Assembly: GCA_964016885.1 (NCBI GenBank) | Contig: OZ024740.1 | Span: 441,998,001-442,062,000, forward strand | Direction: 5' to 3' | Source of the DNA: Eledone cirrhosa | Taxonomy: Eukaryota | Length of the DNA stretch: 64,000 bases | In this document: piece by piece, positions 16,201 through 59,774 of the stretch | Layout: the number at the start of each line of letters is the position of its first letter | Position numbering within the stretch: position 1 is the first letter of the stretch | Position numbers and translations under genes: made by a program | The notes under the pieces: model-generated | The model's database searches: none | Seen by the model: only the letters and a program-made list of their open reading frames with translations | What the model was told of the DNA's origin: nothing

Positions 16201-19200
16201 GGGGGGGCGTTGCTGTGTATTCTAATTTATTGTGTTAATACATATACATATATATATACATATATATATATATATATATAACTACATATCTATATATACA
16301 TATCTATATATACATATATAGTTATATATATATATATATATATTTACTAAAATAACAGATTAAAGTTTAAGCAAAGAATCGCTGCTTTCACCCTTAACGG
16401 GATTTTCTGAAACTAACAAAGTCAATCTGTAAACGCAGAAGTGGATATTTCAAAAAAACGTTGCAACCGGAGGAAGACAGGAAGACGATACTTTGGTTCG
16501 TGGAAACGTTCGCTGGCAAAGAACGGGAAAAAACGAATATAATACATCATATGATTCCAGTTCCTCAATGAAATAACAACCCAACCAGGAACTGGGCATA
16601 TCAGAGTATTGACAAAATTATACACCTCAACAACATATGTACTTGTCTACACCACACTAATTCGGACTGCCTGAAGAGGTCACAGCCAAATATGGCTGTC
16701 ACCGAAATATATATAGCAGTAATAAACGAAGCTAAATTTTAAACATTTGACTTTTTATTTTACTTTATTTTACATTACTTCGGAGTAACCAAACCAACCT
16801 GCGCACTTCGTCGAGTGCTCCAGCCTGCATACTGAGGTGTTGGTATACAACCAACATATACTCAAAATATATATGTATATATATATATATATATATATAT
16901 ATATATATATATGTATATATATATATATATATATATATGTATATATATATATATATATATATATATATATATAATATTAAGGATACTATTTATAGTTATG
17001 TATATTTTAAACTATAAATAGGGAAGGTCAGTAATTTATTACTACCTTATTACCAGTAAGATAAATAGCTCAATGTAAGAACAGTTGTTCTACAGATGAA
17101 ACAATTGTAAGTGAATAAATGCTTTGACCATTGCTTTGATTCTTGTGAATTATATATATATACTAGCAGTAAAGCCCGGCGTTGCTCGGGGTCGCTCAGT
17201 AGCTGTGTTAAAGTTACAATGTTAAGTTTCTTTCTTGGCTTAAAAACTGTAGTGTCTACTGTGCAGACTTGCATGTGGTGTTTTTGATTAATATTCCCTC
17301 AACCAACAATATGCCTTATGAAGTTAAGAAAACATAACGATAACCCGAATGTTATAACAAAAGAGGATGCTGGGGATAGAAACTGCACTGGTTATTTATA
17401 AACAAAGATCGAAAATGTAAACACTGCAACGCAGAGAAAAACATTAACGTAACCAAATTATCAGTTATGTCTGTCTGCACGCCTATATCACCTCTCTGCA
17501 CGACTGTCTGTCTGCACGCCTATATCACCTCTCTGCACGACTGTCTGACTGCACGCCTATATCACCTCTCTGCACGACTGTCTGTCTGCACGACTGTCTG
17601 TCTGCACGCCTAACGACGAAATATTTGCTTGCTTTATGTAGTCTTTAAATAGACTTGTTTTCAAGTAAAAATATTGTTTTAAAATGCTTTTAAATGGAAA
17701 TGAAGCAAAACGGAAGCTTAGTGTTCGAACTGATGAATTTTGCAGGTCAATATTTTGCTGGCTCGACGACAACTGTTCGTGTATTGTGTTAATGTCATTT
17801 TAAACGCTGAGAAAGCCAGCGTAATTTTTTACGTAAGACGCTCAATGTAAACAGAACAAAGGGAAATAACTGATAACTTACGCTCAAAAATCGATACATT
17901 ATATTCGATTTCGTCACATAGGGTGGGTCAATTTGAAATATTTTTTTTCCGATGTCTTCGCTAGGGCTCAATGTACAAGTATAGCAATTTCGGTGCAATT
18001 GCGTGAGAGATTCTAAGAGGAGATGTGTGCCAAAAATCGATAGACAGACAGACAGACAACCACAGTTTTATATATATAGATAAGCAAAAGGGATATTCAA
18101 TTTGTTGGTAATTCAACAAATATAAAGTTTATAACTGATTCAGAGCACTCGACAAGTTTTCTGGAGTATAATATTCAATGATATTAAATAAATGGAAACT
18201 ATATTTATAAAACCATATTTATTCTATTATATATATTTCAAGGGTACCAATTTTTATATAATTAACTCTCAAAACTCTATTAATCTTAAAACAGAATTAT
18301 TTTCTAGTTGCAGACATCGCCCAAATTCCACTTTCAGAAGTATTTTTAATTTATGATGTTCATTACACTTGACTATATCTTGTACACCTTTAAAATGATC
18401 CTATTTTCTTTAAAAATTTACATTTAAATTTTTTTAAATGATCTTCCTTCTTAATTTTTTAATATGTTTACTATTTTTTACTATTTTTACCATTTTACAT
18501 TATTTTCTTAATGACACCCCTCTGAATATATTTTTTTAGATGTAGCTTGATAATCTTTAATTGACATTCTGTGTGTTTATACAATATGTGTGCACATATA
18601 TACATGTGTGTGTGTGTGTATACGTATATACAAAGTATTTGTCAGACGAAGAGCGTCTAGCTATGTATCTATGTAAGGACTTGACACCACCAATACATCC
18701 ACCACACCACCACAAATGCCACTACCATAAACAACAACACCACTACCACACCCCCACACACACGCCAACCCGTCTACTGACCTCACTAACCTCATACCAC
18801 AGCCCATCCAACTAAGCGACCATAACCACCATCATATCATCACATCCACCCCTACATACTCTACAGGCCAAGGCCAACCCACCACCACCACACCACAGCC
18901 CATCTCATCCACCGACCGTCACCAACATCTCACCATCACATCCACCCCATATACACTACAGGCCAGTACATCGCCTTGATCCTTCCCACTAATCAAAACA
19001 ACTCATTTTGTCAAACTCTTAAAAACTCTGTCTTTACCACATAACATGTATTTCATTTTCTTATAGCATTTTAAGAGGGTCCGTCGAGCTGCCGATTATT
19101 GAGTCGGGTAGGATCGATATAGATCGAACCTTCAGCTGATCAAAGGCGAAACGCGCGTCACCTATCAATAAATGCAATGAAGGAACAATCAATCGTCCTT

Positions 19201-56880: not shown

Positions 56881-59774
56881 ATATATACTCTGCTCTGTAA
56901 GAGCATCGAGTGCTCAAACGGTCCACTGCTTACGGACACTTTTAAGCATCCCACACCATATATATATATATATATATATATATATATATATATATATATA
57001 TATAAACAATATTTATACTTATATATGTTTAATATACAACTATAAATATGGAGGGTAGTACTAAGTACTAACCGGTTACTGGTATAAGAAAAGGCTCAAT
57101 GCAAATTATCAAGTGTTTTACAGAGCCGAGATACAAAGTGTTAAAACAATCAAATCTTAGTTTAATACATTTATGTATTAAACTAAGATTTAATTGTGTT
57201 AAAACTTTGTGTATATATATATATATGTGTGTGTGTGTGTGTGTGTGTGTGTGTGTGTGTGTGTGTGTGTGTGTGTATACATGTATATGTATATATTAAA
57301 GTCCGCTATTGTCAAATTATCATAAGTGGCAGTTACAATAACAACAGAAATAATAATAAACAAGATGACTAACCTGTAAATTAAAAGGCCAGCTTGGATT
57401 GTGTTGAGCAAGTAGTCGTGTTGTGTTATGAAAAGATAGCAGAGCTCTGTTATATTTATATGTGATTTAGTTTTGACGTGGCAACAGCAAACATATCCGT
57501 CAGACTATTGGATGGACGACAGAACGATATTATCTAGAGAGATAAAGCGATGAGTAGAATGATGGATGGGTGGCAGGCTGGCTGGTTGGTTAAATCGCTT
57601 GATAGATAAGTAGATGATGATGATGATGATGACGTGGGCGGCGACGGTGTAGTCCTAGCTACTGTTTCTTCACCTCTCTTTGTTTTATTCATATTCGGAT
57701 TTTTTATTGCGTTCTTTTTTTTTACTTATCGTCCGCCAAAATCCTGTTTCGCTCCACCCCACGCCACCCTATTTCACCTCATGCCACCCAACCACCACTC
57801 CACCTCACCCCACCGTACCGCACCGCACTCGACCCCACCCGACCCCACCTCCGCCCAACCAATCACCACCCCACCCCACTTCACCCCACCTCGTTCTCAA
57901 TTTTGTTCTGCTTGTCTCATTCTGATTTTTTCTCTCTTCTTTTTTCGTGTCACTGTTACCTCTTCTCCTATCACCCCCCCTCTTCTCTCTCTCTCTCTCT
58001 CTCTCTCTCTCTCTCTCTCTCTCTCTCTCTCTCTCTCTCTCTCTCTCTCTCTCTCTCTCTCTCTACTTATCTATCTATCTGTTTCTTACATGTGACCATC
58101 GTGTGTATTTGAGCTGCTCTCTTCTAGAAATGGTTCCATTGTTACGCCACAGACACGAGGTCACTACAGATGTAAAATGATGGTGTATCTTCAATTAGAT
58201 CTACTGCAGCGCGTGTTTAGGTGATTGGTACTTTATTTTATCAACCTTGGAAGGATGAAAGGCAAAATTGATTCCCGCAACATTTGATCTCAGATGCGAC
58301 ATGAACCAATGTGCGGTGCTCTACATATTCTGCCAATATACCACACCCATTATCTTAACTCATACTGTTGGAATTCTTATAATTTTATCTTTAATGCTGA
58401 TTTTTTTTAGTTAATCAATTAATTTTAATTGCGAGTAGAATGCAAATCAATACCGATCCGAATCGATCTTTATAGGCAATAATTAAGCTTAGTTCTGCAA
58501 TTGATGCCAAGAAAATAACATAATCTATATTTTTGCTTTTCATTACAAAGAATGTTTGCATTAAACATGAAATATAAAACTTAATATTTTCCTCATTGTC
58601 TCCAATAATTATCCAGTTGTTATTGCAAGTATTGAGGGATGCTTCTGGAATATTTATAAAAGATTTCATTTTATTTTTAATCCAATTTTAAAACCAATCA
58701 TCAGAATACTAAAGGTTAGAGACTTTATCCTGAAGCCAGCATCAGGTTGTAACCAAAACAGAATCTACTTATGCGGTTCCCAACCTTTACACTATTAAAA
58801 ACCCATTTTATTTTGAATACTTTCTGTTAGGAACTGGAATACACATTTACTCAGTTCACTTTGGAACTATAGGAACAATATAAAAATATAATTCACTTTG
58901 TGAATGGATGTTGGATCATAATGTTGTGGGTTCCATTCATGGCTTGTGTGTTGTGTTCTTGAGCAAAACACTTCATTTCACGTTACTCCAGTATATTCAG
59001 CTGAAAATGAGTACCAGCAATAGTTGTGGGTTTAACCATGCGATGGACTGGCGTCATATCCAGGGGAGGGGGAGTCTTTTACTCTCAGTCGCTTCACGCC
59101 ATGAAACCGGGATAAGCACCGGCTTCATGTACCTCCGGATTTGATAAGGACTTTAGATTTTATCATTTACTTTGGAACTTAGGAGGTATGTGGAATTATA
59201 GTTCTCTAGCGAACTTCATTATTTGAGAGAGTCCTAGGACGGTGGATTGGCAGTACCGGTAGAGGGTCGGACGCCATGCTTTGCAGCATAGAGTTACGGC
59301 CCTTTACGTTCTGAGATCAAATCCCGCCTAGGTTAACTTTGCCTTTCATCCTGACGGGGTCGATAAAATAAAGTACCAGTCTCGCACTGGGGTCGATTTA
59401 ATCGACTTTCCCCTCTCCCAGAATTGCTGACCTTGTGCCTATATATGAAAACAATATTTGAGGGAGTCCTGGGGTAGAAATGGCTACTAACTTTAGGCTT
59501 GGTTATTTAACATGGTGGAGGATATTTCATACAATATTTAGGATCGGCTTTCATCCCTCCGGATGTTGTTAAAGTGTAGGACAAAATGCCTTCCGATATT
59601 TGTTTCAGTTGTTTGCGCTCCAAGTCTACAGAGGTGACCTTTGATTTCACTCTGCCAGGGTCGATATCAAAAACGGTGGATTGGTGAAGTTGTTAGAGCG
59701 TCGGAAAACATCACTTTCAGTAACTGTCTACGCATTTTACATTCGAGAACAAATCCTCAGTGACCTACTTGGGT

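Follow-up and report, generated by a model that had tools for sequence, protein, structure and literature searches.

A 64,000-nucleotide stretch of the Eledone cirrhosa genome (assembly GCA_964016885.1, contig OZ024740.1, positions 441,998,001 to 442,062,000 of the forward strand; hereafter the window) contains recurring copies of a short box, YRTYGAG, located upstream of (TA)n arrays. This box is no linear signal: it makes up the 3' strand of a hairpin with a bulge, G-CUC-Y…R-U(U/C/A)-GAG-C. The hairpin is a real and general cis-element that has apparently gone undescribed. It belongs to a known clade of retroelements, the Hydra-clade Penelope-like elements (PLEs), which carry it twice, as hairpins A and B, between a hammerhead motif and the start codon. 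From its position and structure, which are observed directly, we infer its function: each copy likely binds the reverse transcriptase (RT)-endonuclease (EN) of the element and would place an internal start of reverse transcription about 7-9 nt to its 5' side. No description of the motif was found in the literature searched; subscription papers and Repbase notes lay outside that search, and a prior description is therefore possible.

The box was first pointed out in an earlier note on the window, which reported two classes of distance from the motif end to the array, 35-50 nt and, on the minus strand, about 90 nt. All nine strings quoted there are present at the coordinates given, and the distances agree with those measured from the motif start, 46-67 nt at the six plus-strand sites and 95-102 nt at the three minus-strand sites. 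A site overlooked at the time, 18154(-) (TGTCGAGTGCTC), widened the consensus to YRTYGAG, plus a TA-bulge variant. Of the 37 YRTYGAG sites in the window, 11 have a (TA)>=8 junction 40-110 nt to their 3' side, where 1.3 are expected (P 3e-8); this zone was derived from the finding itself, which makes the test partly circular. An independent sample of 80 evenly spaced 10-kb stretches (800 kb of the 3.0-Gb genome, containing 971 (TA)n junctions) yielded 45 box matches 40-79 nt before (TA)n versus about 12.8 expected (P 2e-12), the expectation being drawn from 200-400 nt bins chosen once the histogram had been seen. Positional enrichment near (TA)n, on which the earlier note had staked its claim beforehand, thus holds in this sample. 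It is strand-specific, the reverse complement giving 4 matches at 40-79 nt, and no box enrichment was found in the sample beside any CA, TG, GA or TC array. The distance of about 90 nt does not extend to a general class, as only 11 matches fell at 80-119 nt, without genome-wide enrichment; it is the longer spacer of one family group.

The structure of the hairpin is apparent from individual sites and from the sample. A matching 5' strand is present at nine of ten window sites, having been lost at the tenth (motif 17069-17075) at an inversion point. At these sites GAG is paired with CTC (CTT in one case). A 2-nt T(T/C) bulge comes next, and the stem then continues between the YR of the box and the bases following CTC. 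A loose hairpin filter was passed in the 800-kb sample by 38 of 63 YRTYGAG sites near junctions versus 132 of 573 far from them (P 4e-9), and in a scan of 12 triplets by five bulge lengths, CTC with a 2-nt bulge stood out, being counted 31 times near and 13 times far. Covariation was tested with the 5' strand picked from sequence alone, against 5000 shuffles in which relatedness was ignored, and three pairs were Watson-Crick more often than in every shuffle: the outer pair (50/60 versus a shuffled 39.9; GC 47, UA 3, AU 2), the pair under the bulge (53/60 versus 31.7) and the next pair (33/47 versus 14.3). A covariance model of the hairpin, which has low power, gave 3 window matches at E<0.05 and many weak matches in a 24-nt satellite, and Rfam gave 0 matches in the window at gathering score. 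In a few families a conserved pseudoknot could be made out by eye between hairpin and junction, but it was rejected: its score exceeded that of every one of 30 shuffles in just 2 of the 30 A-B spacers tested.

The hosts of the box are, judging by their motif features, Hydra-clade PLEs. The features of this clade include RWK, DKT, CxCx5C, a type I hammerhead and (TA)n in the published description (PMC8557442). Two decayed PLEs are found in the window, at 51447-54840(-) and 29291-31642, and each ends at the motif. Fragments at 51447-54840 and the near-full family B relative L052 point to an RT with a C-terminal GIY-YIG domain in one open reading frame (ORF). L052 contains RWR (a variant), DKT, YRDD, CxCx5C, GIY-YIG, CxxC and CxH, and in its EN, by motif scan and by eye, CRLC and CNH flank the conserved E and N, with no CCHH. 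The linker reads CNCRTNRSC and CNCRIKRNC in the window, where PLE copies are truncated before the RWK/DKT region; among 120 homologues, CxCx5C occurs in 107, RW[KR] in 77 and DK[TS] in 108. In all, 972 homologues were found, many carrying PF26215, the closest named ones coming from Argonauta; a local Pfam scan of the decayed window ORFs gave nothing significant, and a single-protein metagenome scan and a viral-contig scan returned no relatives. Candidate hammerhead cores, recognized by sequence pattern, occur in families A, C and F and in most metagenome loci, and the pattern had no match in the window copies of families B, D, E, G, H and I. Insertion into (TA)n was seen for the window families and the mapped element ends; no ORF link was established for families E, F and H. 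A first look suggested about 41,000 EN candidates genome-wide. Open frames of 745-960 aa in many genome copies (e.g. G000 C6:51328407) make some Hydra families look young. Bacterial genome records CBDDTI01, JAAEPJ01, JAAESD01 and NZ_MPRK01 (L239-L256) contain animal-type Hydra PLEs with (TA)n flanks, and such occurrences in bacterial and genome-collection records are likely contamination by host (animal) DNA.

Searches with an alignment of 52 homologues gave 78 metagenome and 18 genome-collection loci, and N-terminal searches gave 60 loci from the E. cirrhosa genome; the 102 of their 5' regions that reached 230 nt or more upstream were grouped into 42 families of E. cirrhosa and marine metagenomes. 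Compared with one reference member, the proteins of these families show about 32-53% identity. Taking the best member of each family, at least two hairpins were found in 31 of the 42, one in 7 and none in 4; taking the longest, 26 of 42 had twin hairpins, where shuffling gave a mean of 0.02. The order of elements is hammerhead, hairpin A, hairpin B, ATG. Among families for which an end was mapped, A and B are 58-71 nt apart in nine from metagenomes and 78-146 nt apart in nine from E. cirrhosa. In a family group of five metagenome loci (L170, L185, L179, L228, L224), the hammerhead is separated from hairpin A by a further stem, the third and a smaller one (GCTC/ACTC…GAGT), which resembles the degenerate stem ending Hydra-1_Amil. 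By eye, in the supplement of PMC8557442, the published Hydra-2_Amil and Hydra-2_Ajap consensi finish after one hairpin, Hydra-1_Ajap has both hairpins at its 5' end, starting at A, the hairpin of Hydra-1_Amil and Hydra-1_Crog looks degenerate, and Hydra-1_Obim has no clear copy; coral and sea-cucumber consensi there carry the hairpin without annotation. The hairpin is unmentioned in the examined parts of that paper, and neither "hairpin" nor "stem-loop" occurs in the supplement text (0 instances of each). As a look at whether the hairpin also marks the termini of other PLEs (Naiad, Chlamys, Neptune, Poseidon), three 9-mers were compared with the published PLE consensi, in which line breaks hide matches, and gave 4 matches in 6 Hydra consensi and 2 outside the Hydra file, both in an ORF-like context. 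Two loci (L035 and L048) of one non-Hydra PLE family, with the element end not delimited, had no T[CTA]GAG within 1.5 kb past the EN; L048:1900-3400 and L035 contain a CxxCxxC linker and a CCHH-type endonuclease, making them Neptune- or Nematis-like by motif.

The earlier note had described the elements that share the box as otherwise dissimilar. This is borne out for the six plus-strand sites, among which no pairwise BLAST match was found at E<1e-3 (18154(-) likewise had none to the plus-strand sites), and fails for the three minus-strand sites, which form one related group (70-88% identical). Because of this group, and because 132 of the 573 distant boxes also pass the loose filter, chance or a single repeat family was considered as the source of the pattern. 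The unbiased 800-kb enrichment, the twin hairpins in 31 of 42 divergent families and the mapping of insertion ends refute this explanation, which we regard as having virtually no chance of being correct; the sites in the window itself belong to several families and are not copies of one repeat.

Window families with enough copies have two classes of 3' end and almost nothing between, and many copies of these families stop before the motif. Using 30 full references containing A and B, 100 TA-abutting 3' ends from 18 families were mapped, with positions estimated from BLAST edges. Ninety of the 100 lie within 20 nt 5' of a hairpin, 41 at A (median -9) and 49 at B (median -7), and nine of the other ten are near B. 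Insertions with a long end retain A and stop short of B, so that the sites of the earlier note are hairpin A in such insertions; because the long end falls just before B, the distance from box to (TA)n equals the A-B spacing less about 8 nt. The distance thus varies by family instead of being fixed, as had been supposed, and the junction appears to be set not by the box 5' of it but by a hairpin 3' of it that is usually uncopied. A TA-rich patch precedes the hairpins: TA starts peak at -7 (28/67 versus a background of about 7), and TA occurs within -10 to -5 of 57 of the 67 hairpins versus 28 expected. In families B and H, 57 loci were anchored on a long end; 37 of these had no inverted partner in reach and 20 had one, which was short in all 20; inverted pairs of the window families likewise combined a long and a short end in 9 of 9 cases, one being a duplicate of a window copy.

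In the model proposed here, the GIY-YIG domain would cut a (TA)n target, and the 3' end of the cut target would pair with the UA patch at -9 to -5 of a hairpin. A start set by hairpin A would yield the short end, and a start set by hairpin B the long end, carrying A and the spacer, known as the "tail". If both target strands prime on one RNA, with one start per hairpin, lopsided head-to-head insertions would result. The one-sided tail of PLEs would be explained in this way because each hairpin sets its own internal priming site. A bolder version, which is no more than tentative, is a two-site RNA code, in which the RT-endonuclease acts as a dimer, its two subunits sitting on the two hairpins of a single RNA, and the cut (TA)n is primed on both strands from the UA alignment patches, in a telomerase-like internal-template geometry; the 25-nt hairpin would then be a portable start signal.

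Three other functions could place a hairpin beside insertion ends. Because hairpin B lies 40-70 nt and hairpin A about 100-200 nt before the N-terminal motif of the ORF, they might be translational operators of the 5' untranslated region (UTR), packaging sites or promoter elements, with ends falling nearby only by microhomology with the TA patch; pseudo-long terminal repeats (pLTRs) of other PLEs contain promoters (PMC3846280). This is improbable: the UTRs are AT-rich throughout, yet nine-tenths of the ends (90/100) abut a hairpin, the TA patch is at a fixed offset from it, and covarying stems are unsuited to a double-stranded promoter box. Stems that covary and follow insertion ends also speak against promoter and splice-site readings, which are ranked low. 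The earlier suggestion of a cis signal common to hammerhead/Penelope-like ends survives as a shared signal of several families, for which RT recognition is again the best reading; its linear form gives way to half of a hairpin present twice per element, and promoter and 3'-processing roles are less well supported.

The short and fixed distance from stop to stem also fits a boundary, at which a hairpin-protein complex halts the polymerase on an antisense template or in second-strand synthesis, like a telomerase template-boundary element. Antisense templates have been proposed for PLEs (PMC3846280). However, 5' ends and inversion points are scattered whereas 3' ends are fixed, which is the usual sign of a start, and Poseidon uses a sense template in vitro (PMC11167929); a boundary role is judged a little less probable still than an operator or promoter role.

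The main rival to start setting is a signal at the DNA level, in which hairpins in cDNA or in displaced single-stranded pLTR DNA guide the GIY-YIG endonuclease to cut or resolve 7-9 nt away, so that ends are cut points and not RT starts. The tail was ascribed to EN-mediated resolution by Craig et al. (PMC8557442), and the EN of D. virilis required the tail for recognition, as cited in PMC11167929. The hairpin flank is TA-rich and resembles the EN target, some 5' junctions occur at the same sites as 3' ends, and a strand test comparing G-T with A-C gave close counts (4 versus 3 internal, 13 versus 8 terminal). On the other hand, Poseidon tail ends coincide with RT starts measured in vitro (PMC11167929), and short-ended copies lack both hairpins in the DNA at that end, for which an uncopied RNA signal is simpler. 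Overall, the DNA-level signal is considered unlikely, though it deserves to be taken seriously.

Several observations weigh against start setting by RNA hairpins. Binding of the RT-endonuclease and setting of the start are proposed from sequence patterns. CUC/GAG is invariant, so that its pairing has no covariation support, hairpin B often has just one pair under the bulge, and the G-T versus A-C counts given above are small. The sense-strand fold bias is modest (45 versus 32 of 70 with pairing probability >0.5), and this weak bias is why RNA was preferred over single-stranded DNA. In the triplet scan, CAC without a bulge was also raised near junctions (47 versus 27), an excess that is probably microsatellite-related. 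Fewer than two hairpins were found under the filter used in 11 of 42 families, and 76 of the 100 mapped ends come from three families, with positions that rest on BLAST edges. Furthermore, 7 of 16 5' ends abutting TA are also at hairpins, which plain target-primed reverse transcription does not predict. Examples of 5' junctions that start 0-14 nt before a hairpin, directly after (TA)n, are L243, L195, L171, L298 and L310, and in the window 54938-54960(+), an extra hairpin-like copy (GCTC…GG-TT-GAGT; covariance model E 0.045) that begins at a (TA)n edge and has no family assigned. Such junctions suggest that a tandem or circular template gave rise to permuted copies of unit length.

Comparison with known systems yields likenesses and differences. 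The C-terminal EN+ PLEs of the Hydra clade share RT, CxCx5C, GIY-YIG, hammerhead, (TA)n target and inverted copies with a one-sided tail, and their published consensi hold the hairpin; tails are 30-40 nt there and about 60-145 nt here (Craig et al. 2021, PMC8557442). In Poseidon of Anolis carolinensis, reverse transcription begins internally, at two sites that mark the limits of the tail; it depends on RNA lying 3' of the start, and both strands are cut and extended (Frangieh et al. 2024, PMC11167929). Two internal starts, a need for downstream RNA and the use of both strands agree with the mechanism proposed here. In contrast, and as further points against it, the Poseidon starts fall within the ORF, in an AC-rich stem-loop without homology to its target, whereas those here are UTR sites with TA microhomology, and no duplicated motif is reported for Poseidon in the parts of that paper examined. 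The 3' hairpin of the eel long interspersed nuclear element (LINE) UnaL2, a small bulged or internally looped RNA hairpin recognized by the element's own RT (PMC1636434), is a works-like analogy. In LINEs the hairpin is found on the 5' side of the start and is itself copied, whereas the hairpin here is 3' of the start and duplicated, with no tested sequence similarity. Hepatitis B epsilon is likewise a small bulged RNA hairpin recognized by its own RT, which templates from its bulge; this too is a works-like analogy, the present hairpin being 3' of the start and duplicated. In telomerase RNA, which serves a sister RT family, the template is internal; a short patch aligns it with a simple-repeat primer, and a helix bound by protein marks its limit. 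Its template-flanking elements resemble the arrangement here, a short patch beside a putatively protein-bound helix; as differences, no conserved pseudoknot was found in the A-B spacers (2/30) and there is no repeat addition.

Within the window, the family A PLE at 51447-54840(-) is 5'-truncated and frameshifted, retains an RT with YRDD, the CxCx5C linker, GIY-YIG and a 3' UTR, and has its long end at 51447; a candidate hammerhead core (CCGA variant, by pattern scan) lies at 51628-51658(-) and hairpin A at 51535-51566(-), hairpin B being present in L271, L276 and L282. Hairpin A of family I, a relative of family A, is at 57093-57127(-), with a long end at 57004, and an inverted stub of family A/J at 16974-17150(-) has its long end at 16974, its short end at 17150 on the other arm, and its motif at 17069-17075. 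The decayed family B PLE, 29291-31642(+), has a CxCx5C and GIY-YIG fragment near 30445-30900, an inverted arm with a short end at about 29291, and a long end at 31642; its hairpin A (31508-31595(+)) has a 70-nt loop, and in the continuing copies L060 and L320 the GCTC of B is about 7 nt beyond the long end. A near-identical copy of this insertion with the same ends, at G000:C1:441684933-441688109 (L132), about 340 kb away, is likely a segmental duplication.

Hairpin A of family C is at 18146-18168(-), with a long end at 18078 and hairpin B in full copies L262 and L275. Short-ended copies of family C (20458-20554(+)) and of a family C relative (29176-29274(+)) each have a hammerhead core by pattern scan and end just 5' of hairpin A. 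Family F has a putative hammerhead core with stem II at 16671-16707(+), recognized by pattern scan with no Rfam match at gathering score, and hairpin A at 16776-16817(+) (TA-CTT-CGGAGT…ACTTCG-TC-GAG-TG, the CTT variant), with a long end at about 16867-16876. The long end of family G, 19318, falls 7-8 nt before hairpin B of full copies L260, L263 and L266, hairpin A being at 19221-19272(+); that of family D, about 34325, falls 6-7 nt before hairpin B of L281 and L286, hairpin A being at 34253-34276(+), with a decayed one (TATTTAG) at approximately 33853-33877(+). Family E has hairpin A at 34470-34515(+), a long end at 34553 and no hairpin B seen. The family H inverted stub, 56738-56957(+), has a short end at 56738, a long end at 56957, hairpin A at 56886-56912 and no linked ORF. 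In fold-back stubs at 33722-33850, 34350-34460 and 56738-56880 the inversion point is 100-150 nt or less from the end, with no coding sequence left. Tandem 48-bp units at 49010-49188(+), each with a minimal hammerhead core (CTGATGA…CGAAA), look retrozyme- or satellite-like. Minisatellites at 8352-9399, 27137-28314, 35513-37605 and 41719-44675 (units of 18, 44, 24 and 26 bp) are the source of most long ORFs.

The choice of internal start and the one-sided tail of PLEs have been open since these elements were first described, and the hairpin bears on both. Since the motif is short, duplicated, shared across phyla and set at a constant offset from both end classes, the start-site model can be tested directly, and the ends of a very abundant repeat class can be annotated by a simple rule. 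If the two-site code is true, a 25-nt hairpin could mobilize any RNA upstream of it. Because no retroelement RTs are more closely related to telomerase than those of PLEs, the geometry by which they may bind RNA bears on the origin of telomerase.

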